Source: Pseudomonadota bacterium
Lineage (GTDB): Bacteria > Pseudomonadota > Alphaproteobacteria > Sphingomonadales > Sphingomonadaceae
Direction of reading: 5' to 3'
NCBI GenBank assembly: GCA_049323815.1
Contig: JBMOOB010000020.1
Location: 20,184 to 84,183, forward strand
DNA: 64,000 nt
A program made the position numbers and the translations under genes. How positions within the stretch are numbered: position 1 is the first letter of the stretch; the number at the start of each line of letters is the position of its first letter. Positions 8,475-56,736 of the stretch are shown here, one piece after another. The notes below the pieces were generated by a model, which was not told the origin of the DNA, did not search any database, and saw only the letters and a list, made by a program, of their open reading frames with translations.

Positions 8475-8840
8475 ATGACCGACCCGAATATCCGCCGCCT
8501 CGGCGCCACGCCGCGCATGAGCAACGCCGTCGTCCACAACGGGACCGTCCATTTGTCGGGCCAGGTCGCGATCACGCATCGCGGCGGCGACGTCGACGAC
8601 CAGATTCGCGAAGTGCTGGAACGCATCGACACGCTGCTGACCGAAGCGGGCAGCAGCCGCGCGCAGTTGCTGACCGCGCAGTTGCTCCTGTCCGACATGG
8701 CGATCCTGCCGCGGCTGAATGAGCAATGGGACCAATGGATCGAACCCGGCTGCGCGCCGACGCGCACGACGATCCAGACGGTGCTGGCGTCGCCCGCCTA
8801 TGCACTGGAAATCGCCGTGACGGCGGCGGTCGTCGGCTGA
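8475..8840 (+). CDS. RidA/Rid-family enamine/imine deaminase-like protein
   Basis: MTDPNIRRLGATPRMSNAVVHNGTVHLSGQVA..LNEQWDQWI..APTRTTI..LEIAVTAA. Confidence 0.85.
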   Translation: MTDPNIRRLGATPRMSNAVVHNGTVHLSGQVAITHRGGDVDDQIREVLERIDTLLTEAGSSRAQLLTAQLLLSDMAILPRLNEQWDQWIEPGCAPTRTTIQTVLASPAYALEIAVTAAVVG

Positions 8841-8847
8841 ACGCCGG

Positions 8848-10089
8848 TCACGCCGCCTCGCGGTCGCCCCGCATCGCATAGGCAAGCACACCGAGGCGGC
8901 GGATGCCCTCCCCCGCCGCGTCGGACCCGATATACGAGAAGCTAAGCCGTACGCGGTTGCGCGGCATCTGCGCGCCGTTCGCGAGCACCGGGTGGAACGA
9001 CGTGCCCGAGATGACCGAGGTGTCGCACTCCTCCAGCGCGCGGCGCGCGAAGACGTCGCCATCGACGCCGTCGGGCAGCGTCATCCAGATGTAGAGCCCG
9101 CCTTCCGGCCGCGTCCATTGCGTGCCCGGCGGCATGTGCGCGGCCAGCCCCGCCAGCATCGCGTCGCGCCGTTCGCGATAGACAGTGCGGGCATGCGCGG
9201 TCAGCGCCTCCAGCCGCGTCTCGGCGATTTCGAGCAGCATCATCTGGTTGAGCGCGCTGGTGGCGAGATCCGCCGCCTGCTTCAGCAGCACCAGCTTGCG
9301 CACCACCGCCGCCGGTCCGGCGATCCAGCCGACGCGCAGCGATGGCGCGACGGTCTTGGAAAACGTGCCTGTCTGCAGCACCGGCGACGCCTCGACACCG
9401 CCCGATTGCCGCGCGCCCACGACGAACAGCGACGGCAGCGCCTCGCCGTCATAGCGCAGATGTTCGTAGCACGCGTCCTCCAGCACCGGCATACCCGCGG
9501 CGCGCGCGCGGGCGACCAGCCGTTCGCGATCCTCGCGCAACAGCGACGTGCCGGTGGGGTTCCTGAACTCGGTGCCGACATAGGCGAATTTCGCGTGCTC
9601 CAGCGACGCGTCCAGCGCCTCGCCCTCGGGCACCGCGACATAGGTCGGTTCATAGGCATCGAAGGCGCGCAGCGCGCCGATGAAGCTCGGCACCTCGACC
9701 ATCACCGGGTCGCCGGGCGCGACGAACAGCTTGGCCACCAGGTCGATCGCCTGCTGCGACCCGTTGGTGATGACGATATTGTCGATGCCGCACGGCGCGC
9801 CAGCCTGCGTCAGTTGCTCCGCGATCCAGGCGCGCAGCGGCGCATGGCCTTCGCTCGGCGCATATTGCAGCGCGGTGCGCGCGCGGGCGCGATCGCCCAG
9901 GATCGTGTCCGCCGCCGCCTTGATCTCGGCATAGGGAAAGATCGCCGGATCGGGCAGCCCGCCGCCAAGGTGGATGATCCGGCGGCTGGCAAGCAGCTTC
10001 ATCCGTTCGCGGATGTCCGATGCGGCAACGCCGCGCATACGCGGAGCATAAAGTGCATCCCAGTCGGGCGGCGCGGGCGTTTCGGTCAT
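8848..10089 (-). CDS. PLP-dependent aminotransferase class I/II (2-aminoadipate transaminase/MocR-like, no HTH)
   Basis: IHLGGGLPDP, LQYAPSEG, ITNGSQQAIDL, EDACY, GTFSKTVAPSLRVGW with the PLP lysine. Confidence 0.88.
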   Translation of the reverse strand: MTETPAPPDWDALYAPRMRGVAASDIRERMKLLASRRIIHLGGGLPDPAIFPYAEIKAAADTILGDRARARTALQYAPSEGHAPLRAWIAEQLTQAGAPCGIDNIVITNGSQQAIDLVAKLFVAPGDPVMVEVPSFIGALRAFDAYEPTYVAVPEGEALDASLEHAKFAYVGTEFRNPTGTSLLREDRERLVARARAAGMPVLEDACYEHLRYDGEALPSLFVVGARQSGGVEASPVLQTGTFSKTVAPSLRVGWIAGPAAVVRKLVLLKQAADLATSALNQMMLLEIAETRLEALTAHARTVYRERRDAMLAGLAAHMPPGTQWTRPEGGLYIWMTLPDGVDGDVFARRALEECDTSVISGTSFHPVLANGAQMPRNRVRLSFSYIGSDAAGEGIRRLGVLAYAMRGDREAA

Positions 10090-10183
10090 GATCGTTCCTG
10101 CGCGCGGACGGCCATGGCCCGCGTTCTAATTTCTTGGCGGCCAATTTCGTGGCGGGATGGGAGGCATCGCCCCCGGACGATTG

Positions 10184-10214
10184 GTCGCGGCGGCGCAGGC
10201 ACCGCCGCCGCGAC
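10184..10214. other. Stem-loop just downstream of the second TBDR
   Basis: GTCGCGGCGGCG pairs with CGCCGCCGCGAC (12 bp). Confidence 0.5.
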
Positions 10215-10223: not shown

Positions 10224-12683
10224 TCAGAAGTCCGCGGTCAGGATCACCCCGAAGCTGCGCGGACGATTGTAGATGCCGTTCATCGTCGTCGACAGGTCGA
10301 TCGCCTCGACTACATACCGCTCGTCGGTCAGGTTGTCGCCATAGACCTGGAGCGAGAAGTTGCCGGTGCCGACCGGAATCTTCGACACGATGATACGCGC
10401 GCTCAGGTTCCGCTGGTCGCCCGCGTTCACTGCCGTGTTGTTCGGCGACAGCAGGTCCAGCGTGCTGAACCGGAACGTCGACTTGTAGCTATAGTCGACG
10501 CGCGCCGTGATGACGCCGATCGGCGTTTCGGGCGATTCATATTGCGCGCCGACGTGAATGCTCGTGTCCGACAGGAACGAGAAGCGCGCGATGTCGGCGA
10601 CGTTCTGCGTACAGCTCGGGTCGTTCGGATTGGTGCCGCAAATCGCGGGCAGCGGCAACGCGCCGATTAGATACTCCTGATATTTCGGCCAGATACGTCC
10701 GAAGTCGGCGTCGAGCGAGAAGCCGCCGAACCGCGCATTGAACTCCGCCTCGATCCCGTCATAGGTCGCCTTGCCGGCGTTCGAGATGAAGTTGGTGTTA
10801 CGCGGCGGGCCGAAATACTGGTTGATCTGCAACCCGTCATAGTCGGTGTGATAGCCGACAATGTTCAGCCGGACATGCCGGTCGAACCATTCGCTCTTGA
10901 TGCCGCCTTCATAGCTGACGGCCGTTTCGGGCGCATAGCTCGGCGCGTTCGTCGACCCGGCATTGAACCCGCCGGCGCGAAACGCCGATGTCGCGCGACC
11001 GAAGATGTAGATGGTCGGCGTCACGCGATAGCTCACCGACGCGGCCCAGCCGGTATTTTCCCAGCTGTCCTTGCCCGTGCTGGGCGCAATGCCCGACGTG
11101 CCCGACCCCGGCAGCCCGGTCGACGCGACCGTGCCCGTATAAGTCGTCACGCCCGTCGCCGAGCTGGTCGCGGCGGTGAACGATTTCACAGTCTTGTCGT
11201 CGTGGGTGAAACGGATGCCGCCCGAGATTTCGAGCCCGTCCAATGCCCTGGGGTGGTAGCTGAGCTGACCATAAGCGGCATAGGATTTGGTGCTGCCCGA
11301 ATAGGTCACCGAACGGTCGGTGATCGTCACCGGCGACGTCGCCGAGGTCGGACGGCTCATCTGGACGGTGTTGATCGTCTCGTCGACGCTTTCCCGGAAA
11401 TAATAAAGGCCCGCGACATAGCTGAAGTCGCCCAGCGTGCCGGTGAAATTGAATTCCTGCGAAAACTGGTCCTGCTCGCCGGGCTCATTGGGAGTGACGT
11501 GCGTGATGACCGGTTCGATCACCGTGGCGCCCAGGCGATTCACCGGGCCGAGGACATAGCTGCCGCCAAGCTGGCCGGTCAGATTCTCCTCCAGGCTGGA
11601 ATAGCCGGTGATCGACTTGAACTGAAAGCCCGCCCCGCCGTCATACGTCAGCGTGAAACGGTCCGAAAACGCCTTGATCGTCGCTTCGTTGGTGGTCAGC
11701 AGCGGCGAGCGATAGGCAAGGTCCAGCGGCTTGTCGCTCATGAGGAACGCCGGCCCGCCATAGCTGGGGCTCATGTTGAAATAGGCGACCGCCGTGGCGT
11801 TCGCCGCCAACGTCTGCCAGCCTACCGCTGAGCGGACGTAATTGTACGATGCCGCATTTTCGAGCGTGAAGTCGCCGGTTTCTCCCGCCACCGTCAGCGC
11901 GGCCGAGCGGCTGTGCAGGCTGCCGCCCCATTCGTCCTTGTCGAAGCCGGGGAATTTCACCCACCCGTCGCGGTCGTGGCTCTGCAACACCAGCTTGGCA
12001 CGCAAACCGCCGCCGAGCGTGCCCGAATGGAGCACCGCCGCCCCCTGGATGTCGTTGTTGGAGCCATAGGACAGGCGCACCTTGGCCCCCGCCGCATCGC
12101 GCGGCCGTTCGGTGGTCAGCAGGATCGCGCCACCCGTGGTGTTGCGGCCGAACAGCGTGCCCTGCGGCCCGCGCAGCACTTCGGCGCCCGCCAGGTCGGG
12201 AAGGTCGAATGCGGCGCCCGTCGGGCGCGGCATGTACAGGCCGTCGACATAGAGCGCGACCGGCGGTTCCGAATACAGCGCCACCGACGGGGAGCCGATG
12301 CCGCGCAGATAGAGCATCGGCGCAACCGCGCTGGGGCCGTTGGTGACGACGGTCAGGTTCGGCGTAAGCTGCTGAATCGCGTCCAGCCGCGTGATGTCCA
12401 GGTCCGCGATTTCCTTGGTCGAAACGGCAGTCACCGAAACCGGCGTGGTCTGCACATTTTCGCTTGTGCGCCGGGCCGTGACGATGATTTCCTCAAGCTG
12501 GCCGCTGCTGTTCTGCTGGTCCTGTGCCTGCTGCGTCTGCGTGTCCGGATCGGCCGCAGGCGCCCTGTCCTCGGCGTGCGCGGCAGTTGCGGCCATCAGC
12601 ATCAGCGCGCTGCTGGACAATGCGAGATAGCGAAACGCCTTGCGACCTGAAAAGTGACGCCCGTACTGGGTCTGTCTTGTCAT
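10224..12683 (-). CDS. TonB-dependent receptor (sphingomonad aromatic/lipophilic-compound uptake type)
   Basis: Signal peptide, LEEIIVTARRTSENVQTTPVSV, EVLRGPQGTLFGRNTTGGAI, C-terminal PRSFGVILTADF. Confidence 0.9.
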   Translation of the reverse strand: MTRQTQYGRHFSGRKAFRYLALSSSALMLMAATAAHAEDRAPAADPDTQTQQAQDQQNSSGQLEEIIVTARRTSENVQTTPVSVTAVSTKEIADLDITRLDAIQQLTPNLTVVTNGPSAVAPMLYLRGIGSPSVALYSEPPVALYVDGLYMPRPTGAAFDLPDLAGAEVLRGPQGTLFGRNTTGGAILLTTERPRDAAGAKVRLSYGSNNDIQGAAVLHSGTLGGGLRAKLVLQSHDRDGWVKFPGFDKDEWGGSLHSRSAALTVAGETGDFTLENAASYNYVRSAVGWQTLAANATAVAYFNMSPSYGGPAFLMSDKPLDLAYRSPLLTTNEATIKAFSDRFTLTYDGGAGFQFKSITGYSSLEENLTGQLGGSYVLGPVNRLGATVIEPVITHVTPNEPGEQDQFSQEFNFTGTLGDFSYVAGLYYFRESVDETINTVQMSRPTSATSPVTITDRSVTYSGSTKSYAAYGQLSYHPRALDGLEISGGIRFTHDDKTVKSFTAATSSATGVTTYTGTVASTGLPGSGTSGIAPSTGKDSWENTGWAASVSYRVTPTIYIFGRATSAFRAGGFNAGSTNAPSYAPETAVSYEGGIKSEWFDRHVRLNIVGYHTDYDGLQINQYFGPPRNTNFISNAGKATYDGIEAEFNARFGGFSLDADFGRIWPKYQEYLIGALPLPAICGTNPNDPSCTQNVADIARFSFLSDTSIHVGAQYESPETPIGVITARVDYSYKSTFRFSTLDLLSPNNTAVNAGDQRNLSARIIVSKIPVGTGNFSLQVYGDNLTDERYVVEAIDLSTTMNGIYNRPRSFGVILTADF

Positions 12684-12755: not shown

Positions 12756-14729
12756 TCAGTCGATCTTGGTGCCGAGCCGTACGCCCTCCAGCGTTGCATG
12801 CACCATGCGCCGCGGCGACAGCGCGTCGCCGATCACATGGATTTCCCGCGCAAGTCCCGCGAAGCGCGTGGACGCGCCCGCATCGGCCCGGCGGCCTTCC
12901 AGATCGACCACCGTCCCCGGTTGCTCGATCCGTCCAGTTCTGTCGGTGAGCGTGTGGCGGATCAGCAGCGCGCCATCCTCCGCACCCTCGACGGCCGTGA
13001 ACGGCCGGATTTCCACGCCCCGTTCGGCCAGCCGCCGCATCAGCGCGTAGAAGCTCGCCGCCTCCACGCCACCGCCCGGCGCCGCCATTTCGGTGAGCAG
13101 CGTCACCGCCCGCCCCTGGCCCGCGAAGAAATCTGCAGTAATCATCGGCGCCAGATGGTCGTCGCGCCCGCCGATTACGGTAACGCGGTCCCCCGCAGCG
13201 TCTGCTTCCTCAATCGCCGCCGGTGCTGGCGTGCCATGGCCGCCGTCCCAGGCGGCGCCGGTGGCAACCACCAGCACGTCGGGGCGCCAATGTTCGGCCA
13301 GCTTGCGGTCGAATTCGGTGCCGGCCGCGACTACGATCGGCAGCGCGTCGATCCGCCGCGCGCTATAGTCCAGATATTCGCCGAACCGCGCCTGCCCCGA
13401 CGCCCGCGCGACAGGGCGCAGCGTGCCGCCCAGCGCCGGCGCGCGATCGACCAGCATCACCTGATGCCCGCGCTCGGCAGCGGCGATGGCGCATTCGATG
13501 CCCGCCGGACCCGCGCCCGCCACCAGCACGCGGCGCGGCGTCTGGGCGGCGTGCGATTCCAGCTCGCCCTCGCGGCCCGCGCGCGGATTGACGGCACAGG
13601 CGAGCGGGCGGCCGTAATGGCATTCGTTGCCGCCGATGCACGGACGATGCTCCTCGCCCGCGTCGGGGCCGATCGCCTTCGCAACCATCGCCGGATCGGC
13701 CATCAGCGCGCGCACCATGCACGCGACATCGGCCGCGCCCGACGCGACGATCTCTTCCGCCTGCGCCATCGACACGATCGACCCGCTGACCATGACCGGC
13801 AGCGTCGTTGCCGCCTTTATCGCCGCCGACACCGCGACATTCGGCCCCGGGTCGACGAAGGCCGAGGCGACATAGGCCTGGCCCGCGCCGCGCCACAGCC
13901 CCGAATAGGAGCCGCCGGAAATGCTGATATAGCCCGCCCCGGCCGCTTCCAGCCGCCGCGAAATCTCGACAAGGTCGTCGAGCGACAATCCGCCCTCGGG
14001 CTCCGGCCCGCACAACCGCACGCCCACCGGGACCGCGCCATCGACAGCGTCCAGCACGGTTTCCAGCGCCGCCATCAGGAAACGGATGCGCCCTTCGAAA
14101 TCACCGCCCCAGCGGTCGGTGCGCCGGTTGGTCAGCGGCGACAGGAATTGTTCGATCAGATAGCCGTGCGCGCCATGCAATTCGAGCGCGTCGATTTCGG
14201 TCGCAAGCGAGCGCTGCGCCGCCAGCGCATAGGCATGGAGCAAGTCGCCGATCTCGGTCTCGCTCAACGGATGCGGGCGGTGGCGTTCGTATTCGTCGGA
14301 GACCGTCGACGAAGAGACCACCGGCTGGAAACTGTCCGAATGCTGCGCAGCACCGGGGTGATAGAGCTGACCCACTGCGCGCACGCCATGGTTGCGCACC
14401 GCGCGCACCCATTCGCGGATCGCGGGCACCAACGCATCATATTGCGCGCGCCCCTCCTGCGTCAGCGGGTGGTAGGGGACGCCGTCCTGATCCCCTCCGG
14501 GACCGGCAGTGGGAGCGCCCGGCCCGAAGGGGAACTGCATCAGCCCCAGCGGGCCGAAATTGAAGCCGGCGATGCCGACGCCGCCGCGCGCACGTTCGTC
14601 CAGATAGCGCAGGTAGCGCGCCTGGCTGAGCCGGGGGCCGTGTGTCGCCATCATGATGCGATTGCGCGCCTCCATCGACCCGATGGTGATCGGCCGCGCC
14701 ACATGCGAGTAGGCGTCGGGCGTGCTCAT
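12756..14729 (-). CDS. NADH:flavin oxidoreductase (OYE domain + FAD-binding domain; FadH/TMADH-like)
   Basis: RNRIMMATH, ELHGAHGYLIEQFLSPLTNRRTDRWGG, VLVAGAGPAGIECA. The Fe-S motif reads CIGGNEC..C. Confidence 0.88.
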   Translation of the reverse strand: MSTPDAYSHVARPITIGSMEARNRIMMATHGPRLSQARYLRYLDERARGGVGIAGFNFGPLGLMQFPFGPGAPTAGPGGDQDGVPYHPLTQEGRAQYDALVPAIREWVRAVRNHGVRAVGQLYHPGAAQHSDSFQPVVSSSTVSDEYERHRPHPLSETEIGDLLHAYALAAQRSLATEIDALELHGAHGYLIEQFLSPLTNRRTDRWGGDFEGRIRFLMAALETVLDAVDGAVPVGVRLCGPEPEGGLSLDDLVEISRRLEAAGAGYISISGGSYSGLWRGAGQAYVASAFVDPGPNVAVSAAIKAATTLPVMVSGSIVSMAQAEEIVASGAADVACMVRALMADPAMVAKAIGPDAGEEHRPCIGGNECHYGRPLACAVNPRAGREGELESHAAQTPRRVLVAGAGPAGIECAIAAAERGHQVMLVDRAPALGGTLRPVARASGQARFGEYLDYSARRIDALPIVVAAGTEFDRKLAEHWRPDVLVVATGAAWDGGHGTPAPAAIEEADAAGDRVTVIGGRDDHLAPMITADFFAGQGRAVTLLTEMAAPGGGVEAASFYALMRRLAERGVEIRPFTAVEGAEDGALLIRHTLTDRTGRIEQPGTVVDLEGRRADAGASTRFAGLAREIHVIGDALSPRRMVHATLEGVRLGTKID

Positions 14730-15150: not shown

Positions 15151-15951
15151 GTGGACAAGATCGCAACGCTGATCGCCCTGAAAGACACGGTTGCCGTGGT
15201 GACGGGTGCGGGTTCCGGCATCGGCCGCGCGGTCGCCGAGCGCTTCGCCGACTCCGGTGCGCGGCTGCTGCTGACCGATCGCGACGCGCAAGGGCTGGCA
15301 GAAACCGTCGCACGAATCGACTCGACCGGCGGCACGGCCCGGTCGATCCTTGCGGACGTTACGGAATGGGCGGCTGCCGACCGAGTCGCCAATGCGGCCA
15401 TCGCGGCGTTCGGGCGCATCGACACGCTGGTGAACTGCGCCGGGCTATTTCCCTCCGCTCCCGCGTTGGAGCTGGACGAGGCGCATTGGGACCTGCTGCT
15501 GGACGTCAACCTGAAGGGCGCGATGCGCATGACGCAAAGCATCGGGCGGCATCTGGTAACCCAGCGATCGGGCGCCATCGTCCATGTCGCGTCGGTCCAG
15601 GCGTTGCGGCCAACGGCAGGCAAGGCGGCGTATTCGGCATCGAAGGCGGGGCTCGTCGCGCTGATGCAGGTGCAGGCGCGCGAACTGGCACCCGCCGGCG
15701 TGCGCGTGAATGCGGTCGCGCCCGGGCCGATCCTGACCGATCGCATCCGCGCCGCCGTCGCCGCCGCGTCGGCCGCGCCCGCGTCGGCCGCGCCCGCGCC
15801 GGCCGCCGGACGGCCATTGTCGCAAGTGCCGCTCGGCAGGTTCGGCGAGGCGGACGAAGTCGCGCGCGTGATCCTGTTCCTCGCCAGCCCGGCGGCCAGC
15901 TATGTCACCGGCGCGCTTTGGCCGGTCGACGGCGGCGCCCAGCTCGCCTGA
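15151..15951 (+). CDS. Short-chain dehydrogenase/reductase
   Basis: VTGAGSGIG, LVNCAG, YSASK, RVNAVAPG. Contains an Ala/Pro insert encoded by a 15-bp tandem repeat. Confidence 0.92.
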   Translation: MDKIATLIALKDTVAVVTGAGSGIGRAVAERFADSGARLLLTDRDAQGLAETVARIDSTGGTARSILADVTEWAAADRVANAAIAAFGRIDTLVNCAGLFPSAPALELDEAHWDLLLDVNLKGAMRMTQSIGRHLVTQRSGAIVHVASVQALRPTAGKAAYSASKAGLVALMQVQARELAPAGVRVNAVAPGPILTDRIRAAVAAASAAPASAAPAPAAGRPLSQVPLGRFGEADEVARVILFLASPAASYVTGALWPVDGGAQLA

Positions 15952-15959
15952 GCCGCGCT

Positions 15960-16550: not shown

Positions 16551-16584
16551 GCGAAGGGGTGTAGCGCGGTCGCGTCCGCCGTGC

Positions 16585-16600
16585 TAGTTAACGATAACTA
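16585..16600. promoter_or_regulatory. TetR-type operator TAGTTAACGATAACTA
   Basis: 16-bp palindrome with one mismatched pair, in the 60-bp tetR/P450 intergenic region of an otherwise GC-rich sequence. Confidence 0.7.
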
Positions 16601-16610
16601 ACTAAAGAGG

Positions 16611-18133: not shown

Positions 18134-18160
18134 TTTTCCTGTGCAGCCGTCCGCAGCACT

Positions 18161-48641: not shown

Positions 48642-49424
48642 TCAGGCACGAAGCGCGGCGGACGATACGGTCTGGCTGGTGTCGAACCCGTGGCGACGCT
48701 CGCCCCCACCGCCCGAATAATGCTCGCGGATCGCGCGCTCGGCGGTCATCGCGTCGCCTTCGGCAATGGCGCGATAGATGCGCTCATGCTCGCGCGCCAG
48801 CGACAGGCGGACCGACCGGTCGACGAAGGTCCCGTGCACGGCATTGTCCAGTGCATGCGTATCGACCTGCGCGGTCCACATCTGCTCCAGCGCGCCGACC
48901 ACCAGGCTCATCGTCTGGTTGCCGCAATACGCGACCAGTTCGGTATGGAACGCGCGGGCAAGCGGAATGAACCGGCTGGGTTCGTCGATCGCTTCCATGC
49001 TGGCGTCGATGTTGGCGCGCAGCCGCGGCAGCACCGTCGTCTCGCGGTCGGGACGCATCGCCGCCTGCGCCGCGCAGGCGGGCTCCAGCAGGCGCATCGC
49101 GTCGATCAGGTCGATCAGCGGCACGCCACGCGACTGAAGCACCAGCGCCAGCATATAGGCCGCAGTCCCGGGCTGCGGCAGATGGACGATCGCGCCGCCC
49201 ACATTGCCGCGCAGCACGGTGATGAGGCCTTCGGTTTCCAGGATGCGGAACGCCTCGCGGATCGCGGGCGGACTGACGCCGAATTCGGTCATCAGTTCGT
49301 CTTGCTTGGGAAGCAGCGCGCCGTCGCTCAACGTGCCCGAAAGGATGCGCGCGCGCAGGCTGTCCGCGACGATTTCGGCGACACGCGGCTGGCGAAGGCG
49401 CCGCTTCGTCCTGAACTGTTCCAT
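48642..49424 (-). CDS. GntR family regulator (FadR subfamily)
   Basis: LPKQDELMTEFGVSPPAIREAFRILETEGLI wHTH followed by an FCD domain. Confidence 0.92.
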   Translation of the reverse strand: MEQFRTKRRLRQPRVAEIVADSLRARILSGTLSDGALLPKQDELMTEFGVSPPAIREAFRILETEGLITVLRGNVGGAIVHLPQPGTAAYMLALVLQSRGVPLIDLIDAMRLLEPACAAQAAMRPDRETTVLPRLRANIDASMEAIDEPSRFIPLARAFHTELVAYCGNQTMSLVVGALEQMWTAQVDTHALDNAVHGTFVDRSVRLSLAREHERIYRAIAEGDAMTAERAIREHYSGGGGERRHGFDTSQTVSSAALRA

Positions 49425-49572
49425 CCCCTAGGCTTCCAATCCGTCAATGCCGCCCGGAACCTGTTGCCCCGTCCGGAGGGCCGAAAGGCGCAGGACATAC
49501 GCGCGCTATCCATCATTGCAAGTCTGTGACGAATATCATCGCGCCAAATCAAAGACAAATGGGAGAGAGACG

Positions 49573-50493
49573 ATGCCCACCGATCCAAAGCGGATGCAAA
49601 GCTTTACCATCAGCATCACGCCCTTCACCGCCGGAGGCGCGATCGACGAAGCGGGGTTGCGCGCGCATCTGACTCGGCTGGGCGCGGCGGGCGTCGGCGT
49701 CTATGTCGGCGGAGGCGGCAGCGGCGAAGGCTATACGCTGGACGATGCCGAGACCGAGCGGCTGCTGGCGATCGCGGTCGAGACGCTGAAGGGCGTGGTG
49801 CCGATCCGCGCGATGGGCGTCGAGCCGCGCACCGCGAAGCAGATGATCGCCTTTCTGGAGCGTGCAGAGCGCGCCGGCATGGACGCAGCGCAGGTCTATT
49901 CGCTCGACGTCGGGCATGGCCATGTGCCGACGCCGAAGGAACTCGACGCCTATTTCGACGAAGTGATGCGCAACAGTTCGATGCCGCTGGTGCTGTCGAC
50001 GCACCAGTCGGTCGGCTATGTCATCCCTGCGCCGGTCATTATCGAACTGTTCGCGCGACACCCGCATCTGACCGGACTGAACATCAGCCATCAGGATCCG
50101 AACTACCTGCGCACGCTGATCGACGCGCTGGGCGACCGCATCGACATCTGCGTCGGCGGACCGCATCAGGCGCCGATGGCGCTGGCGCTGGGCGCGCAGG
50201 GGTTCCTGACGTCGGAGGGCAATCTGGCGCCGCGCCTGGTGATGCGCGTGGTTGACGCGGCGCGGCGCGGCGACGGCAATGCATTCCTGGACGAATGGGG
50301 CAAGCTGCTGCGGCTGTTCATGGCGCTCTACGGCAATGGCGGCATCCGGGTGACCAAGGCAGTGCTGACGAAGCTGGGCGCGGCGGGCGGCTATCCGCGC
50401 GCGCCGCGCCTGCCGTCGGAGGACGATGCGCTCGCCCGCGCGATGGACGTGGTCGAGGCGTTGGGCATCGCCGAGTCCGAAGGGTTGCGCTGA
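49573..50493 (+). CDS. DapA/NAL-family TIM-barrel protein lacking the Schiff-base lysine
   Basis: ITPFTAGGAIDEAGLRAHL..GGSGEG fold signature; VLSTHQ and GLNISH occupy the positions of LYN and GIKE/D. Confidence 0.8.
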   Translation: MPTDPKRMQSFTISITPFTAGGAIDEAGLRAHLTRLGAAGVGVYVGGGGSGEGYTLDDAETERLLAIAVETLKGVVPIRAMGVEPRTAKQMIAFLERAERAGMDAAQVYSLDVGHGHVPTPKELDAYFDEVMRNSSMPLVLSTHQSVGYVIPAPVIIELFARHPHLTGLNISHQDPNYLRTLIDALGDRIDICVGGPHQAPMALALGAQGFLTSEGNLAPRLVMRVVDAARRGDGNAFLDEWGKLLRLFMALYGNGGIRVTKAVLTKLGAAGGYPRAPRLPSEDDALARAMDVVEALGIAESEGLR

Positions 50494-50842: not shown

Positions 50843-51724
50843 TTACTCGGCGGCGATCGCCTTGGGCATCGGATCGCCATCGGGCCCGTCGTCCAGGCTG
50901 GCGATGCGTTCGTCCCAGAAGGCCGATTCGCGCGACGTGTCGATCGTGTAGGCGCCGCGCACGCCGAACTTCCGCCGCGCTTCTTCGAGCGGCAGGTCGA
51001 GCCAGTCCTCATAATGCGGCAGGAACAGCGGATCGGATTCGCGGCCGATCCGCATGCCGTGCTCGGCCAGGTCCCACATCTTCAGGAACAGCTCGGGATA
51101 GTGCAGCGGCCCGCGCACGAACATCGGCACGGTCAGCAGCGTGTTCTGCACATTGAGCAGCCCCGCCAGCTCCGGCGAGAAATAGCGGAACAGATTGCCG
51201 TATTTCAGATAGGCCGGGATGATCTCGCCCAGCCCGTCAAAACCGCCACCGCCAAGGATGTGCATGAAGTCGTGGATCTGGACGCCGCGCAGGAAGAAAT
51301 ATTCGAACGACGAACGCGGTTCAAAGGTGGGGATGATGTCCACCTCCATGTTCGCGCCCTTCAGCTGCTTGTACCAGATGCCGCCCAGCGACCCTTCGGG
51401 GCACGACGCCATGTCCTCGCGCGTCAGCCGCGCGAGCCAGCGTTCGTCGAGCCATGTGTCGAGTTCGGGCCAGCCGAGCCGTGCCTCGTTGAACAGCGCC
51501 TCGATCCGCGCATGGTCCTGGATCTCGCGCACCGCCTCGATCAACATCGGGATGCCATAGGTCGGCGGCATGTCGCGGCCGTTGCGCTTCAACGTCTGCG
51601 TCGTGATCCATTCGCGGATACGATAGTCGTTCAGATATTTGGACGACGAAATGAGCGCGGTGCTCTCCGTCGCGACTGCCTTCCGCCCCCTTTGGAGGTA
51701 CGGAAGATCCTCTTCCTTCACCAT
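50843..51724 (-). CDS. Coq4-like metal-binding protein
   Basis: CPEGSLG and HDFMH-x11-E (HDFMHILGGGGFDGLGE), the Coq4 HDxxH-x11-E motif. Confidence 0.78.
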   Translation of the reverse strand: MVKEEDLPYLQRGRKAVATESTALISSSKYLNDYRIREWITTQTLKRNGRDMPPTYGIPMLIEAVREIQDHARIEALFNEARLGWPELDTWLDERWLARLTREDMASCPEGSLGGIWYKQLKGANMEVDIIPTFEPRSSFEYFFLRGVQIHDFMHILGGGGFDGLGEIIPAYLKYGNLFRYFSPELAGLLNVQNTLLTVPMFVRGPLHYPELFLKMWDLAEHGMRIGRESDPLFLPHYEDWLDLPLEEARRKFGVRGAYTIDTSRESAFWDERIASLDDGPDGDPMPKAIAAE

Positions 51725-51755
51725 ATTTTCTCCTCCTGCTTGCGATCGAGGGGCG

Positions 51756-53501
51756 TCAGGCCGCGACCGCGGCGTCGGCCACCTCGATCACCGGGCTTAC
51801 GAACGTACCGGGCAGCGCGCCCGTGAACGCGCCATTCTCAAATGTCGCTACGCCGTTCACCAGCGTCAGCCGCATCGGCGCGGCGTCACGGCTGAACCGC
51901 CAGGTCAGCCCGCCCTCGCCGTCCGGCACGTCGAAGCTGCGCTTCAACGGGCGCGTTTCGATCTCGTCCAGATTGAACACGGCGATGTCGGCGCGCATGC
52001 CGGGCTTCAGATAGCCGCGGTCGCCGAAGTTGAAATGCTCGGCCTGCTTGCCCGTCTGGACATAGACCGCTTCTTCCAGCGTCAGCTCGCCGTTTTTCAC
52101 GAACTGGGTGAAGAACAGGATATTCTCGCCGCCGCCGCACAGCATCTGGCCGTGCGCGCCCGCGTCGGAAATGCCGCCGACGGTCCGCGTCGACTTGAGC
52201 ATCTGGATCGTCTTTTCATGCTCCATCGGATGCGGCACGCGATTGACGATCGACTGGACGCCGTTTTCGATCACCCAGTCGGCCAGCGCGTCCGACGGAT
52301 GCACGCCGCGCTGTTCGGCCAGGTCCTTGAGCGTCAGACCGAGCGGCCCCGCGCCGGTTTCCGAATCCATCAGCAGCATCATGTGCGGATTGGCGACCAG
52401 CGACTGCTTGAACGCCTTGTTATCCCAGCTGTCGCGCGCCTGGGCGCGGAATTCGGGATCGCGCAGCAGCGCGAGCTTCGCTTCCTCGGTCGGCGCCTGG
52501 ACGACCTGATGCCAGACATATTCGTTCGCCTGGGCGAACGACGAGCTGGAGAAGAAATTGAGCGCCGTCGTCGGCGGTACATGCGCGAAGCTCGGCCAGA
52601 AATCGAGGTCGTCTTCCTTCTGACGCGCGGTAATTTCCCACATCTTGTCGCGGATCGTGTCCTGGAAGCGCAACAGGCCGCCGGCGCCGGCAAGCTGGAC
52701 GCGCACGCCCAGGCCGCGGCACAAGTCGCCGAGCCGCTCCATCTGCTCGGGCGCCTTCAAGTGGAAAAAGGTGTCGAGGATGACCTGCAGCTGCGTGCCA
52801 TGGTTGCGCGCCAGCACGCCCAGCAGCGCCTTCCATTCGGCGTCGTCGGCGACCAGGCTGGGGACCGGACGGTCCTTGCTGTCATGGTCCATCAGGTTCG
52901 ACGACATGCCCAGCGCGCCCGCGCGGATGCCGTCTTCCAGCAGCGCGCACATCTTTTCGATCTCTTCAGGCGTCGCGGTGCGCGACCAGGCATCCATGCC
53001 CATCACCGCCAGGCGGATGGCGATATGGCCGACATAGCCGGCGATGTTGGTCGACGTCGGGCAGTTCTTTTCCACCGACGCGCGATATTCCGACCAGGTG
53101 CGCCAGTCCCAGGGCAGCCGGTCGAGGAACGGCTGGATCGGCACTTCCTCGAAGAAAGTGAAGATCTTGACCATCTCAAGCCGCACTTCGGGATCGTCCG
53201 AAACGGGCGCGGCGGTGAAGCCGCAATTGCCGATCACGGCGGTCGTCACGCCATAGCCGGGGAGCGGGTCGAGGCTCGGCTGCCACCACATCACGGCATC
53301 CATGTGCGTGTGGCATTCGATGAAGCCCGGCGTGACCAGGCAATCGGTCGCGTCGACCACGCGTTCGTCGGTGCCGGCGGCCAGGTCCGGCGCGATCTCG
53401 GCGATGCTGCCGTCGCGCACGCGCACATCGGCGACATAACGCGGCGCGCCGGTACCGTCGACGACCGTGCCGCCCTTGATGAGGATATTCTCCACAGCCA
53501 C
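51756..53501 (-). CDS. Amidohydrolase, N-acyl-D-amino-acid deacylase-like
   Basis: IKGGTVVDGTG, VTPGFIECHTHMD, GVTTAVIGNCG, ISDAGAH, GMRADIAVF. Confidence 0.88.
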   Translation of the reverse strand: MAVENILIKGGTVVDGTGAPRYVADVRVRDGSIAEIAPDLAAGTDERVVDATDCLVTPGFIECHTHMDAVMWWQPSLDPLPGYGVTTAVIGNCGFTAAPVSDDPEVRLEMVKIFTFFEEVPIQPFLDRLPWDWRTWSEYRASVEKNCPTSTNIAGYVGHIAIRLAVMGMDAWSRTATPEEIEKMCALLEDGIRAGALGMSSNLMDHDSKDRPVPSLVADDAEWKALLGVLARNHGTQLQVILDTFFHLKAPEQMERLGDLCRGLGVRVQLAGAGGLLRFQDTIRDKMWEITARQKEDDLDFWPSFAHVPPTTALNFFSSSSFAQANEYVWHQVVQAPTEEAKLALLRDPEFRAQARDSWDNKAFKQSLVANPHMMLLMDSETGAGPLGLTLKDLAEQRGVHPSDALADWVIENGVQSIVNRVPHPMEHEKTIQMLKSTRTVGGISDAGAHGQMLCGGGENILFFTQFVKNGELTLEEAVYVQTGKQAEHFNFGDRGYLKPGMRADIAVFNLDEIETRPLKRSFDVPDGEGGLTWRFSRDAAPMRLTLVNGVATFENGAFTGALPGTFVSPVIEVADAAVAA

Positions 53502-53521
53502 TCTCCCGTTCTTATTCGCTC

Positions 53522-53533
53522 TGTATCGTTACA
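53522..53533. promoter_or_regulatory. Palindrome TGTATCGTTACA upstream of the deacylase gene
   Basis: 12 bp with one mismatched pair; shares the core TAACGATA with the operator at 16585-16600. Confidence 0.45.
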
Positions 53534-53618
53534 ATGATTACACCGATTGAATCGCATTGCCCAGCGAATTGCAAATGCTTTGCCGCTACGGCCGCCTCGC
53601 CTGGCGGCGCACCCGTGT

Positions 53619-54773
53619 TCAGGCGGGCACCGGCTCCAGCCGGTCGAGCCGCCGCTGACCGGCGATTTCGATGCCATAGCCTTCCAGCCCGACGAAGCTG
53701 TGCGCAGTGTTGGTGAGCAGCGTGACGCGGTGAATCCCCAGGTCGGTCAGCACCTGCGCGCCGATCCCATATTCGCGCAGCTCGACATGGCGCCCGCCCG
53801 CCTCCTCGCGTCCTTCCATCCGCGCGCGGATGACGCAGGCAGTCAGGTCGGGCGCCGGGGACCGCAGCAGCACCAGCACGCCGCTGCCCTGTTCCGCGAT
53901 CGCCCGCATCGCGCGTTCGATCAGCCCGGAGCGGGGGTCGTCCTCGGCCAGCAGGTCGGCGAACGGCGTCTGCACATGCATGCGGACCAGCACCGGGTCG
54001 GCCGGGTCGATCCGCCCCTTCACCAGCGCGACGACTTCGCCGCCCTGCACGGTATTGGCATAGGCGATGACGCGCCAGTCGCCGCCCCAGCGGCTGGTGA
54101 AGCGCATCTCCTCGCGCCGCGCAACCAGATGGTCGTGGCGGCGGCGATAGGCGATCAGGTCGCGGATCGTGCCGATCTTCAGCCCATGGAACTGCGCGAA
54201 CGACACCAGGTCATTCAGCCGCGCCATCGTGCCGTCGTCGTTCATGATTTCGCAAATCACGCCCGACGGATTGAGCCCCGCCAGCCGCGCGACGTCGACC
54301 GCCGCCTCGGTATGTCCCGCGCGGACCAGCACGCCACCTTCGCGCGCAACCAGCGGAAAGACATGGCCCGGCGTCACGATCGCGTCGGGGCCGTTGGCGG
54401 CGTCGATCGCGACGGCAATCGTTCGCGCACGGTCCCCCGCCGAAATGCCGGTGGTGACGCCTTCCCTGGCTTCGATTGACACCGTAAACGCGGTTTCGTG
54501 GCGCGTGCCGTTCGACCGGCTCATCAGGTCGAGCCCGAGCTGGTCGACGCGCTTCTTGCTCATCGCCAGGCAGATCAGCCCCCGGCCATGGGTCGCCATG
54601 AAATTGATCGCGTCGGGCGTCGCCATCTGCGCGGGGATGACCAGATCGCCTTCATTCTCGCGATCCTCGTCATCGACCAGGATGAACATGCGCCCGTTGC
54701 GCGCCTCGTCGATGATCTCCTCGGGCGAGGAGAGGAAGGCGTGGCGGCGGGGAAGACGGACGGGCTGGGCCAT
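53619..54773 (-). CDS. ribB: 3,4-dihydroxy-2-butanone-4-phosphate synthase fused to a degenerate GTP cyclohydrolase II domain (RibBX-type)
   Basis: LVDDEDRENEGDL, TAFTVS, PGHVFPL, RAGHTEA. The C-terminal domain reads RMHVQTPFADL and lacks the GCHII Zn cysteines. Confidence 0.88.
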   Translation of the reverse strand: MAQPVRLPRRHAFLSSPEEIIDEARNGRMFILVDDEDRENEGDLVIPAQMATPDAINFMATHGRGLICLAMSKKRVDQLGLDLMSRSNGTRHETAFTVSIEAREGVTTGISAGDRARTIAVAIDAANGPDAIVTPGHVFPLVAREGGVLVRAGHTEAAVDVARLAGLNPSGVICEIMNDDGTMARLNDLVSFAQFHGLKIGTIRDLIAYRRRHDHLVARREEMRFTSRWGGDWRVIAYANTVQGGEVVALVKGRIDPADPVLVRMHVQTPFADLLAEDDPRSGLIERAMRAIAEQGSGVLVLLRSPAPDLTACVIRARMEGREEAGGRHVELREYGIGAQVLTDLGIHRVTLLTNTAHSFVGLEGYGIEIAGQRRLDRLEPVPA

Positions 54774-54774
54774 G

Positions 54775-55977
54775 TCACAAAACCTCGAACAGGCCGGCGG
54801 CGCCCATGCCACCACCGACGCACATGGTAACGACGACATGCTTGACGCCGCGCCGCTTCCCCTCGATCAGCGCGTGGCCGACCATGCGCGCGCCCGACAT
54901 GCCGAACGGGTGGCCGATGGCGATCGCGCCGCCGCTGACGTTCAGCCGATCGTCGGGGATGCCCAGCCGGTCGCGGCAGGGCAGCACTTGCGCCGCAAAG
55001 GCTTCGTTCAACTCCCACAGGCCGATGTCGTCGATCGTCAGCCCGTGGCGGTCGAGCAGCTTCGGCACCGCGTGGATCGGGCCGATGCCCATTTCCTCAG
55101 GCGGGCAGCCGGCGACGGCGATGCCGCGATAGGCGCCGAGCGGCGCCAACCCCTCGCGCTCCGCGACGCGCGCCTCGACCAGCACCGACGCGGCGGCGCC
55201 GTCGGACAGCTGGCTGGCGTTGCCGGCAGTCACATGGCGGCCCGCGGCGATGACTTGGCCGCCCTTCCACACCGGCTTCAGGCTCCGCAGCCCTTCCAGC
55301 GTGGTATCGGCGCGCGCGCCTTCGTCGGCGGCGAGCCGCACTGTCCTGCGCGTGGTTTCGCCGGTCGCCTTGTCGCGGACAATCATTTCGCTTTCCATCG
55401 GCGCCAGCTCGGCATCGAACACGCCCGCCGCCTGCGCCGCGACGGTCCGCTGCTGGCTCTGCAGCGCATAGGCGTCCTGCGCGTCGCGGCTGATGCCATA
55501 GCGCTCGGCGACGATCTCGGCGGTTTCGATCATCTGGATATACATGTGCGGGCTGTGCGCGAGCACGCTCCGGTTCTGCGCGCGATAGGCGTTCTTATGC
55601 TCGTTTTGCGTCAGGCTGATCGATTCGACACCGCCGCCGACCGCCACGTCCATGCCGTCGTGCAGGATCTGCTTGGCGGCGGTGGCGATCGCCATCAGCC
55701 CGCTGGCGCACTGGCGGTCGATCGACATGCCCGCGACCTGCACCGGCAGCCCGGCGGCGGCGGCGGTCAGCCGGCCGATATTATAGCCTTGCGACCCCTG
55801 CTGCGCGGCGCAGCCCATGATGACGTCCTCGATCCGCGCCGGGTCGATCCCGGAGCGCCGCACCGCCTCCGCCACGGCATGGCCGGACAACGCCGTCGCA
55901 TCGGTATCGTTGAAGGCGCCCCGATAGGCTTTGCCGATGGGGGTCCGGGCAGTCGAGACGATCACGGCTTCGCGCAT
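54775..55977 (-). CDS. Acetyl-CoA C-acyltransferase (thiolase)
   Basis: [20 protein letters not shown]; RQCASG, NEAF, GHPFG, TMCVGGG - full catalytic set. Confidence 0.93.
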
Positions 55978-56232
55978 TGGGCACTCCGCAGACGCTCCCG
56001 CCTTGGGGAGCCGATTGGCGGCGGTTTTAGGCGCGGGCGCATCGGCGCGGCCAATGCCGTTGCGTGATCGCGACGGTATCGCCCGGGCATCGCGGCATCG
56101 CCCGTCGCCAGCGCGCGTAAAATCGGATCGCGCCAATCTCCGGACAGCATCGCCCGCGCGCCCGCGCTCGATTGACCGCGCATCCAACCTCTATAGTTTT
56201 GCGAGGATAGCACTCTGGAGAGGAACCGCATC

Positions 56233-56736
56233 ATGGACGAAGCCGCCAAGAAGACTGCGCTGCGCATGATCCCCTATGGCCTGTACGTGTTCACCGCGCG
56301 GACCGAGGACGGTACGCCGCACGCCGCGACGATCAACTGGGTGACGCAGACGTCGTTCGCGCCGCCGCTGGTGGCGATGGGCATCAAGGCGGATTCGGGC
56401 GTCTATGCCGCGTTCAAATCGGCCGGCGCGGGCGTGCTCAACATCCTGGGCAAGGGCCAGCAGGGTCCGGCCTTCGCCTTTTTCAAGCCAGCAGTCGAAG
56501 CCGAAGGCCTGTTGTCGGGCGAACCCTATGCCGATGCCGCCAGCGGCGCGCCGGTACTGGAGCGCGCGCCCGCCGCGCTGCATCTTAAACTGGTTGATAT
56601 CGTTGAACATGGCGACCATCACATCGTCGTCGCCGAAGTGACCGACGCCGAGATCAGCCTGCAGCCCGAGGGCCGCCCCGACGACGCCGTGCTGGCGATG
56701 CGCGATCTGGGCGACAAGGTCTTCTACGGCGGCTGA
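56233..56736 (+). CDS. Flavin reductase-like FMN-binding protein
   Basis: ALRMIPYGLYVFT, NWVTQTSFAPPLV, GDHHIVVAEV. Confidence 0.85.
   Translation: MDEAAKKTALRMIPYGLYVFTARTEDGTPHAATINWVTQTSFAPPLVAMGIKADSGVYAAFKSAGAGVLNILGKGQQGPAFAFFKPAVEAEGLLSGEPYADAASGAPVLERAPAALHLKLVDIVEHGDHHIVVAEVTDAEISLQPEGRPDDAVLAMRDLGDKVFYGG

Follow-up and report, generated by a model that had tools for sequence, protein, structure and literature searches.

We report that a 48-kb region of a sphingomonad genome, at positions 8475-56736 of a 64,000-nucleotide stretch of contig JBMOOB010000020.1 (the window), forms a gene island that probably breaks down an alicyclic carboxylic acid, most likely terpenoid-derived, as coenzyme A (CoA) thioesters and without aromatisation or meta-cleavage; we put the probability of this reading at roughly 0.58. 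A terpenoid was among the substrates that a first-pass annotation of this DNA had entertained, and a terpenoid-like alicyclic substrate gains support from two predicted enzymes of the region, namely AH2, a candidate amidohydrolase-related dinuclear oxygenase (ARO) resembling PtmU3 and DitZ, and a cytochrome P450 (P450) resembling CYP124/125. What the genes give directly is enzyme families, from which we infer every step of the pathway.

At ~67% G+C, raw lists of open reading frames (ORFs) were useless for the window. Genes were therefore called with a codon-usage model trained on the long ORFs of the host genome, which gave 55 non-overlapping genes, 50 of which were covered by Pfam scans. These independent calls recovered every item of the family inventory drawn up in the first-pass annotation for 8475-56736. 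The region encodes TetR, LysR and GntR regulators, and a TonB-dependent receptor (TBDR) and a major facilitator superfamily (MFS) transporter for transport. Its oxidoreductases comprise the P450, a KshA_C Rieske oxygenase, a luciferase-like monooxygenase (LLM), an OYE/FadH-like reductase, an NMO/IpdC flavoprotein, a nitroreductase and two flavin reductases. Enzymes of β-oxidation type include five short-chain dehydrogenases/reductases (SDRs), two CoA ligases, three crotonases and five genes of the acyl-CoA dehydrogenase (ACAD) family, where four had been counted before. C-C cleavage is represented by an Ltp2-like thiolase-fold protein with a DUF35 partner and by a CoA-transferase pair (IpdAB), and further genes encode Amidohydro_2 and Amidohydro_3 proteins, an aminotransferase, RidA, a Coq4-like protein and a RibB-GCHII fusion. 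Four genes were new to the list: an APH-family kinase, an HSL-type esterase, a DHDPS-family protein and a true thiolase with Thiolase_N/C domains.

Other copies of the island were sought by a degenerate-pattern search for IpdA, extension of the resulting loci, a plasmid collection and whole-genome searches with AH2. The IpdA search returned five loci, including those of Sphingomonas colocasiae JCM 31229 and Sphingobium sp. CECT 9361; the plasmid collection added the copy of Novosphingobium sp. EMRT-2 on the 757-kb megaplasmid pABRDHK22, and AH2 led to three more genomes, including those designated G349 and G370 here. Altogether, nearly all of the ~42 genes from RidA (8475) to a flavin reductase (56736) recur clustered in these six other genomes, with protein identities of 50-90% and with module order differing among genomes. 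About 40 of them stay together through at least four rearrangements in at least four genera, and nothing else is conserved with them: no gene of the window flanks (1-8301 and 56963-64000) recurs beside the island in the other carriers. Such clustering is far beyond chance. Since the gene set recurs across genera and the flanks are not shared, the borders 8475-56736 given in the first-pass annotation are correct, and its treatment of the region as one unit holds. The island is rare and patchily distributed: of 400 other genomes of the order, 3 have an AH2 orthologue, and the 36 genomes of the same genus have none. The public copies of the island carry generic annotation only. Judged from this distribution of genes, the region is a conserved, horizontally spread catabolic island.

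The steroid core enzymes had been reported missing from the window, and a complete canonical steroid pathway elsewhere in the host genome was looked for and not found. In this 99.9%-complete assembly, KstD, HsaC/TesB, HsaD/TesD and HsaF/TesG were not found genome-wide, and the controls were positive. The DmpG-type aldolase domain (PF07836, TesEFG/HsaEFG) had no match in the host genome nor in carriers G349 and G370; it is present in G010, G066 and G074, three genomes with canonical clusters. For the extradiol dioxygenase TesB/HsaC, the best TIGR03213 match in the host genome reached just 35 bits, compared with 240-275 bits directly beside ipdA in the same three genomes, and for the hydrolase TesD/HsaD the best TIGR03343 match was just 36 bits. 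No true KshA was found either, as the single KshA_C gene of the host genome is that of the window (83 bits), and true KshA genes in canonical sphingomonads score 180-210 bits. The host genome has three full-length FAD_binding_2 genes, among which KstD was not found, the two strongest matches being presumably SdhA and NadB. A KstD candidate on contig C38 (33914-35431) was rejected, because it scored 138 bits against flavocytochrome c3 fumarate reductase and 65 against KstD and is closer to fumarate/urocanate reductases. The same contig holds, at 28272-36451, a second TonB-receptor-linked cluster with an OYE/FadH-type reductase (661 aa), a TBDR, two alpha/beta hydrolases and a soluble fumarate/urocanate-reductase-like flavoprotein. 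The estrogen 4,5-seco pathway and the dit-type abietane pathway were likewise discarded, as the genome has no type I extradiol dioxygenase. By its gene content, the host genome cannot run the 9,10-seco pathway.

AH2 (46511-47662, minus strand) matches Amidohydro_2 (PF04909, 3.7e-31), and its best solved relatives are PtmU3 (2.8e-34) and DitZ (8.7e-30), both aligned from end to end; decarboxylases and lactonases of the fold score much worse, and small-molecule AROs reach ~1e-18. PtmU3 is a diiron β-hydroxylase of platensimycin biosynthesis that accepts CoA-ligated diterpenoids (PMC7782822), and DitZ, likewise diiron, hydroxylates diterpenoids and has been studied with dehydroabietic acid (PMC13154177). 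AH2 keeps the N-terminal D-x-H motif (D12-S-H14, aligned to SADSH of PtmU3), the residue x being hydrophilic in the diiron ARO class (PMC13154177), as Ser is here. Further conserved are a His (NIHVA, corresponding to IH of PtmU3 and DitZ), the D-Y-P-H stretch and a Glu (FAEVDFGW, corresponding to AEAGCAW of PtmU3 and SEGGVGW of DitZ). At the last position of the C-terminal motif, PtmU3 has Glu313, which binds iron, and in the other AROs the residue is second-sphere; the metal-ligand list of AibH2 is also on record (PMC7782822). The three orthologues read (S. colocasiae, Sphingobium sp. CECT 9361 and EMRT-2) show the same residues in all AH2 motifs, including a Ser at this last position. A search with the published ARO motif would miss AH2, because its last motif residue is Ser and not Asp/Glu. 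Together, our alignments indicate that AH2 is ARO-like in fold, ligands and closest relatives and that strict motif membership fails at one position, and we hold with moderate confidence that it is an oxygenase rather than a hydrolase. One of the "two amidohydrolases" of the first-pass annotation is thus most likely an oxygenase. In every island AH2 heads the same co-directional operon as ipdAB, with a gap of 90 nt in EMRT-2.

Hundreds of AH2 homologues at 60-66% identity occur in Actinomycetota, Acidobacteriota and Alphaproteobacteria, all labelled amidohydrolase. In four of the six contexts inspected, the AH2 homologue (63-65% in these four, which comprise Ilumatobacteraceae, Acidobacteriota and alphaproteobacterial metagenome-assembled genomes (MAGs) and one metagenome contig) adjoins a DHDPS-fold gene 49-59% identical to that of the window. 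The window protein (49447-50493, plus strand; Pfam DHDPS) lacks the Schiff-base lysine: against three solved DHDPS structures, K161 (E. coli DapA numbering) is replaced by Asn and Y133 is lost. Its orthologues and the homologues next to AH2 homologues in four distant contigs (L042:11088-11996; L043:543-1493; L045:13618-14670 and 15760-16668; L046:8171-9073) also lack the Lys (Asn or Thr) and the Tyr, and the subfamily has an invariant Lys elsewhere (K304 in the numbering of the window protein). With the catalytic Lys and Tyr lost, this protein should not be classed among the Schiff-base aldolases; it may act as a partner subunit or catalyse a different chemistry. Neighbours often shared in the distant contexts are a GntR/FCD regulator (60-64%) and an Ltp2-like gene accompanied by DUF35 (42% and 34%). 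The GntR/FCD gene of the window (48642-49424, minus strand; Pfam) has its 60-64% counterparts beside AH2 homologues in the Ilumatobacteraceae MAG and the alphaproteobacterial MAG; a CoA ligase of 64% identity lies beside the AH2 homologue in the metagenome contig L046, and a counterpart of the crotonase ECH1 (50%) in the Ilumatobacteraceae MAG L043. Comparison of these loci indicates that a cassette of oxygenase, ligase, crotonase, aldolase and Lys-less DHDPS-like protein is older than the island, and that in sphingomonads it was joined to an Ipd module of steroid-pathway ancestry.

The thiolase-fold protein of the core operon (35447-36604) and its DUF35/OB-fold partner (35021-35443; Pfam OB_ChsH2_C), both on the minus strand, have orthologues of 89-90% in other islands. 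The best structural relative of the former is Ltp2 (PDB 6OK1, 1.5e-76). Compared with the SCP2-thiolase 6HSJ, the Cys of NNNCSTGS is replaced by Gly, HDCF reads YDCF and GHP reads AYI; compared with Ltp2, LYDHF reads IYDCF and EAYIHG is identical. The protein thus bears the Ltp2-type signature, namely no nucleophilic Cys, Tyr in place of both catalytic His and an adjacent DUF35 partner, and it is predicted to be an Ltp2-type aldolase. The two Tyr of Ltp2 are catalytic. The altered active sites claimed in the first-pass annotation are real, as in the DHDPS-like protein (Lys to Asn) and the final Ser of AH2, both kept in orthologues, and in DUF35, where the usual zinc-ribbon cysteines are all absent in the window protein and in two of the three orthologues read, whereas the Sphingobium orthologue has two Cys in the zinc-ribbon stretch.

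The Ipd module, which serves the steroid C/D-ring (HIP) pathway in canonical sphingomonads, is present in canonical gene order with 54-78% identity, and comprises IpdAB, IpdC, EchA20, an ACAD pair and a FadA6-type thiolase. On the minus strand lie IpdB (44288-45085) and IpdA (45103-45978), a ring-cleaving hydrolase of CoA-transferase fold (Pfam CoA_trans), an EchA13/ScdN-like crotonase (43081-43965; NCBIfam PRK08290, 411 bits, above cut-off), an IpdC/ScdK-like flavoprotein (41987-43084; Pfam NMO) and an EchA20/ScdY-like hydratase (41238-41987; PRK07938, 338 bits, above cut-off). IpdB is without the (S)ENG catalytic motif, and ScoB on contig C19 of the same genome keeps QSENG. Compared with their counterparts in canonical sphingomonad clusters, EchA20, IpdC and EchA13 show 66-78% identity, whereas IpdA, IpdB and the small ACAD subunit are more diverged (43-62%). 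This heteromeric ACAD pair (small subunit 39013-40065, large subunit 40070-41233, minus strand; Pfam) is IpdE1E2/FadE31-32/ScdM1M2-like; the small subunit is without the middle domain and has IpdE2 as its best NCBIfam family (132 bits, below cut-off). The pair corresponds either to ScdC1C2/FadE30-33 or to ScdM1M2/FadE31-32, and since it follows EchA20 and is 65-69% (large) and 43-45% (small) identical to the pair in canonical clusters, the statement that FadE30/33 is missing cannot be kept. Neither can the statement that no FadA6 homologue exists: the thiolase at 54775-56187 (minus strand; Pfam Thiolase_N/C; true start probably near 55977) shares 60-63% identity with the thiolase of canonical HIP clusters in four sphingomonads and reaches 570 bits with PRK07108 (cut-off 615), so that a FadA6/ScdF-type enzyme is present. 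The reported lack of FadD3 was borne out, the acyl-CoA ligase of the operon (37401-39026) being FadK/long-chain-like and scoring 197 bits with the FadD3 model (cut-off 657).

When five Ipd-module proteins were concatenated and a tree was built, the copies from six islands grouped as a clade (SH-aLRT 100) apart from the canonical sphingomonad copies, among which G122 was counted as canonical by gene order alone. The Azospirillum copy was sister to the island clade. Ipd blocks running from IpdAB to the ACAD pair, then a thiolase and an SDR, with no AH2 within 20 kb, were seen in Azospirillum sp. 412522 (L003, 57-74% identity) and in a Hyphomonadaceae MAG (L004, 44-74%).

The core operon has 17 genes, with AH2 first and the KshA-family Rieske monooxygenase gene last. 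The latter (30825-31829, minus strand; Pfam Rieske and KshA_C) scores 137 bits against KshA in the PDB; its cluster and Fe ligands are intact and aligned, and its C-terminal domain is divergent and only partly aligned. Between them, also on the minus strand, are SDR4 (31860-32642) and SDR5 (32670-33440; Pfam, orthologues 75-83%), a 59-aa ORF overlapping both neighbours (33437-33616; gene call), a PaaK-like adenylating enzyme of the phenylacetate-CoA-ligase family (33616-35016; Pfam AMP-binding_C_2), the aldolase pair, ECH1 (36604-37404) and the above acyl-CoA ligase (Pfam; orthologues 79-83% for both). The PaaK-like enzyme scores 143 bits with NCBIfam PaaK, below cut-off, and has orthologues of 78-81%. 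The 59-aa ORF has tblastn orthologues in three islands, and a small hypothetical gene is annotated at the same place in EMRT-2.

Further left in the window, the P450 (16611-17882, plus strand) falls by its PDB matches in the CYP124/125/142 group, with 360 bits to a CYP125 ancestor, 264 to CYP124, 249 to CYP125 and 228 to P450terp, and its orthologues in other islands are 72-74% identical. Members of this group oxidise terminal methyls of methyl-branched lipids and sterol side chains. A TetR-family gene (15960-16550, minus strand; Pfam TetR_N) is divergent from it, and this pairing is also annotated in EMRT-2.

Based on these families, we propose the following route. The TBDR and the MFS transporter would take up the substrate; the P450, with SDRs, would oxidise a terminal or geminal methyl to a carboxylate, which a CoA ligase would activate. 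Where β-oxidation is blocked by a quaternary α-carbon or a ring β-carbon, AH2 or the KshA-like Rieske enzyme may install a β-hydroxyl, so that the Ltp2-DUF35 aldolase could cut the C-C bond by retro-aldol cleavage. ACADs, crotonases, SDRs and the ScdF-like thiolase would shorten the resulting chain, and IpdC, EchA20, IpdAB and EchA13 with the heteromeric ACAD would open the remaining carbocycle(s) hydrolytically, with the last steps on the chain left to the EchA13-like hydratase and the ACAD pair. Ketone, lactone and 4-hydroxy-acid side products may be handled by the LLM with reductases, the esterase and the kinase/ACAD module, and propionyl-CoA would leave via an adjacent housekeeping carboxylase.

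A more specific version of this route is tentative. From metabolites, Haupt et al. (AEM 2026, PMC13599519) deduced how Sphingomonas mineralises (-)-Ambrox, sclareol, manool and drimanol: a P450 oxidises a methyl group, the product is ligated to CoA and hydroxylated at the angular C5, ring A is opened by retro-aldol cleavage, and β-oxidation and retro-Dieckmann cleavage follow. Genes beyond the P450, including those of the C5 hydroxylase and the aldolase, were unidentified in that study, whose authors cite PtmU3 as the sole precedent (PMC13599519). It is possible, though doubtful at this stage, that a general CoA-dependent ring-A retro-aldol route exists for saturated polycyclic terpenoids with a C4 gem-dimethyl group and that the island holds its missing genes. 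A PtmU3-type oxygenase, possibly with the Lys-less DHDPS-fold protein, would then hydroxylate the angular β-carbon of a terpenoyl-CoA, the Ltp2-type aldolase would open the ring, and the remaining rings would pass to hydrolases of IpdAB/EchA20 type taken over from steroid catabolism. Labdanoids and drimanes (sclareol, manool, Ambrox) or 4,4-dimethyl tri-/tetracyclic terpenoids would be candidate substrates.

Several observations weigh against a terpenoid-derived acid as the substrate or against AH2 as the oxygenase of its pathway. The C-terminal motif D-x-P-H-x-[D/E] of AROs reads D-Y-P-H-I-S in AH2, with an Asp two residues later. No small Rieske ferredoxin, KshB-type reductase or P450 ferredoxin was found in the island, whose sole Rieske protein is the full KshA-type oxygenase. 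Neither a palindrome scan of the window nor a scan for conserved 9-mers in the orthologous promoters of seven genomes found an operator shared between operons; both scans were crude, and their negative outcome does not show absence of co-regulation. Six conserved genes, encoding the aminotransferase, RidA, Amidohydro_3, nitroreductase, Coq4-like and DHDPS-like proteins, find no role in a purely terpenoid scheme and may point to an N-containing substrate or intermediate, and near two distant AH2 homologues lie genes for NCS1 or peptide/opine-type transporters and a molybdenum hydroxylase. As EchA20, IpdC and EchA13 are so close to their canonical counterparts, the late intermediates may be genuine steroid C/D-ring compounds, which keeps a 4,4-dimethylsterol or triterpenoid reading alive. 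Finally, the genes of the Ambrox pathway were reported to be dispersed rather than clustered, and E. coli fosmid clones gave no products downstream of M3 (PMC13599519).

The alternative that survives best, which we nevertheless consider unlikely, is that the island is still a steroid pathway, acting on non-aromatisable steroid-like compounds (4,4-dimethylsterols, tetracyclic triterpenoids or secosteroids) or salvaging HIP-like C/D-ring acids released by other degraders, with true HIP-pathway CoA esters as late intermediates. It would account for the identity to canonical clusters of EchA20, IpdC, EchA13 and the large ACAD subunit (65-78%) and of the thiolase (60-63%), for a P450 nearest to CYP125/124/142, which are sterol C26 oxidisers, for an aldolase of the type that acts on the sterol C17 side chain, and for a Rieske oxygenase of the KshA family. 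However, the genome has no KstD, TesB/HsaC, TesD/HsaD or TesEFG and no FadD3 orthologue, IpdA, IpdB and the small ACAD subunit have diverged to 43-62%, and simple salvage of HIP could do without a P450, an ARO, a Rieske oxygenase and an LLM. Moreover, S. colocasiae has a canonical-type IpdA gene (57%) in addition to one of island type (81%), and this coexistence of an island and a canonical copy suggests a different job for the island.

An N-containing alicyclic substrate, such as an amino-acid conjugate, a lactam- or hydantoin-like ring or a terpenoid alkaloid, also has a low probability in our estimate, and overlaps with the terpenoid reading rather than excluding it. Here the Amidohydro_3 protein would open or deconjugate the substrate, the aminotransferase, RidA and DHDPS-like proteins would process the N part, and the CoA modules would degrade the carbocyclic acid. 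The RidA-family gene (8475-8840, plus strand; Pfam Ribonuc_L-PSP 4.8e-20; orthologues 66-72% in EMRT-2, G349 and G370) and the gene of a pyridoxal-phosphate aminotransferase of class I/II (8848-10089, minus strand; Pfam Aminotran_1_2 and NCBIfam), which has a MocR-type catalytic domain without helix-turn-helix and orthologues of 58-63% in four islands, are adjacent, an arrangement conserved in four islands; Amidohydro_3 and the nitroreductase-family protein (47704-48453, plus strand; Pfam) are conserved in all. The Amidohydro_3 protein (51756-53495, minus strand; Pfam; PDB D-aminoacylase 5e-30) resembles D-aminoacylases and N-acyl-D-glutamate deacylase, but the match lies mainly in the N-terminal 200 residues, and no alkaloid-specific amine oxidase or deaminase was seen. 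Distant AH2 contexts with an NCS1 (hydantoin/nucleobase-type) transporter, an SBP_bac_5 ABC system, aminotransferases and a molybdenum hydroxylase would suit such a substrate, as would the action of other characterised AROs, e.g. AibH1H2, on amino acids; yet AH2 is closer to PtmU3 and DitZ (1e-34 and 1e-30) than to the small-molecule AROs (~1e-18).

That several unrelated pathways merely travel together with no single substrate, as three different regulators each by its own operon, the failure to find a shared operator motif, the occurrence of the AH2/DHDPS-like/GntR/ligase/aldolase cassette without the Ipd module in other phyla and of the Ipd block away from AH2 in Azospirillum and Hyphomonadaceae, and the varying module order might suggest, is improbable, given that the ~40 genes have been kept together through rearrangements and genera with nothing else conserved, that AH2 heads the ipdAB operon in every island and that the enzyme types complement each other as a single pathway.

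The breakdown of a terpenoid-derived alicyclic acid is the reading that we prefer for the island, whose remaining genes are as follows. The TBDR (10224-12620, minus strand; Pfam Plug and TonB_dep_Rec_b-barrel) is 41-44% identical to the receptors at the equivalent place in other islands and 66% identical to a receptor (L044:9829-12288) beside an AH2 homologue in a Caulobacter MAG, and its gene seems to have been exchanged independently of the enzymes. Next to it is the OYE/FadH-type flavoprotein reductase gene (12756-14729, minus strand; Pfam Oxidored_FMN and Pyr_redox_2; enoate or 2,4-dienoyl-CoA reductase-like), which matches the NCBIfam FadH/OYE and BaiCD families below cut-off and has orthologues confined to G349 (65%) and the Caulobacter MAG (56%). 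SDR1 (15151-15951, plus strand; Pfam adh_short) has orthologues of 50-60% that adjoin the TBDR and MFS genes in other islands. The MFS gene (18099-19634, plus strand; Pfam MFS_1; start at 18099 or 18408) has orthologues of 52-63% immediately upstream of AH2 in other islands.

An operon at 19912-25525 (minus strand; Pfam; orthologues 68-81%) encodes a long ACAD (23765-25525), SDR2 (22815-23753), the APH-family kinase (21770-22822), ACAD1 (20509-21750) and an NADPH-FMN reductase (19912-20508), and by analogy may be an Lva/ACAD10-11-like module for 4-hydroxyacyl-CoA. It is followed by an alpha/beta hydrolase gene (25687-26619, plus strand; Pfam Abhydrolase_3 4e-69; orthologues 61-67%), an HSL-type esterase or lactonase candidate. 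A LysR-family gene (26728-27726, minus strand; Pfam HTH_1 and LysR_substrate) is divergent from the LLM gene (27786-28913; Pfam Bac_luciferase), which is followed by SDR3 (28910-29680), both on the plus strand and with orthologues of 85-88%; the best PDB matches of the LLM are LuxA-type enzymes, and 3,6-diketocamphane monooxygenase reaches just 26 bits. Between this operon and the convergent core operon sits an orphan 258-aa ORF (29885-30661, minus strand) with no Pfam match. It is the sole island gene without an orthologue; its weak coding score and its absence from all six other islands make it a strain-specific insertion.

At the right end, the genes of the thiolase, the RibB-GCHII fusion (53619-54839; Pfam), Amidohydro_3 and the Coq4-like protein (50843-51724; Pfam; HDxxH-x11-E motif intact) form an operon (50843-56187, minus strand) whose four-gene order is found in all islands. 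The RibB-GCHII fusion travels with the island in all carriers. A housekeeping role for it was rejected, as a second ribB copy lies on contig C39 (55440-56015) and the EMRT-2 island copy is on a megaplasmid. Rib genes are also attached to lux operons, which hold a luciferase-family flavoenzyme and a flavin reductase. The last island gene encodes a flavin reductase of the Flavin_Reduct family (56233-56736, plus strand; Pfam; orthologues 67-68% in EMRT-2 and G349).

Just outside the left border lies a ferredoxin reductase gene (7069-8301) that is not common to any other carrier. The right flank (56963-63078) holds an ScfR-type short-chain acyl-CoA regulator and a PccB-type carboxyl transferase, both Pfam-scanned, followed by 139-aa and 712-aa ORFs that would be further carboxylase genes by position alone. 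This flank resembles a route that carboxylates propionyl-CoA, as would fit a pathway with propionyl-CoA among its products, and is not conserved with the island.

To our knowledge, apart from steroids, camphor and resin acids, hardly anything is known of the genes by which bacteria mineralise saturated polycyclic terpenoids, and the island offers a concrete, testable gene set in culturable strains (S. colocasiae JCM 31229 and Novosphingobium sp. EMRT-2). The first-pass reading of steroid modules reassembled for a non-canonical substrate keeps its footing in the genome-wide absence of the core and in the unity of the region, and loses it in the details of FadA6, FadE30/33 and the number of amidohydrolases. 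An enzyme annotated everywhere as "amidohydrolase" is likely a C-H oxygenase of a subfamily that the published ARO motif misses, and a partnership of this ARO subfamily with a Lys-less DHDPS-fold protein and an Ltp2-type aldolase extends across phyla. The IpdAB/EchA20 ring-hydrolysis module is not a reliable marker of steroid degradation in genome surveys. Literature searches on IpdAB in non-steroid settings and on resin-acid or sclareol genes in sphingomonads returned no description of this cluster; in the literature searched, an ARO/Ltp2-aldolase cassette coupled to steroid-type ring hydrolases on a mobile island is not described.

Among known systems, the reference set for the HIP module is the KstR2 regulon of Mycobacterium tuberculosis, with IpdAB, IpdC, EchA20, EchA13, FadE30-33 and FadA6. 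With this module, found also in Comamonas testosteroni as scdL1L2-N-K-Y-M1M2-F, the island shares the order of CoA-transferase-fold pair, crotonase, NMO protein, crotonase and ACAD pair, an IpdB without the transferase glutamate motif and an ScdF/FadA6-like thiolase, its proteins being 54-78% identical to those of canonical sphingomonads; the functions of the Scd enzymes are summarised in bioRxiv 10.1101/2023.02.02.526766. Different from canonical clusters, the island has an ARO gene beside ipdA instead of tesB, no FadD3/ScdA and, genome-wide, no A/B-ring genes; downstream it continues with the FadK-like ligase, crotonase, Ltp2-DUF35, PaaK-like ligase, two SDRs and the KshA-like oxygenase, and its module is a clade of its own that coexists with a canonical copy in S. 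colocasiae.

The aldolase is linked to the Ltp2-ChsH2(DUF35) enzyme of Thermomonospora curvata (6OK1) by its score, the lost Cys, the His to Tyr changes and the DUF35 partner. Unlike there, the island DUF35 is free-standing and without zinc-ribbon Cys, the motif is YDCF rather than YDHF, and the hydratase is a crotonase, not a MaoC-type ChsH1/ChsH2. The dit clusters of Pseudomonas abietaniphila and Paraburkholderia xenovorans hold P450s, a CoA ligase, SCPx-type thiolase-fold proteins, SDRs, a TetR regulator and a permease, and the dit route relies on two dioxygenases, one ring-hydroxylating and one extradiol, to process the aromatic C ring, whereas the host genome here is without a convincing extradiol enzyme. 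DitZ itself is an ARO (PMC13154177). With PtmU3 and DitZ, AH2 shares the PF04909 fold, full-length alignment and metal ligands, and with PtmU3 also its being encoded together with an acyl-CoA ligase; it differs in its low identity, which marks it as no close relative, in the Ser at the last motif position, in its catabolic setting and in its linkage across phyla to a Lys-less DHDPS-like protein.

The Ambrox/labdanoid pathway shares sphingomonad hosts with the island, which encodes every enzyme class postulated for it except dedicated alcohol/aldehyde dehydrogenases: P450, acyl-CoA synthetase, C-H monooxygenase, aldolase, ACAD, hydratase, hydroxyacyl-CoA dehydrogenase, thiolase, ketocyclohexanecarboxyl-CoA-type hydrolase, enoate reductase and lactone hydrolysis. 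The genes of that pathway are reported as dispersed and not in an operon, whereas those of the island are clustered. By analogy of chemistry alone, rather than of sequence, the island would mirror the Ambrox route step for step.

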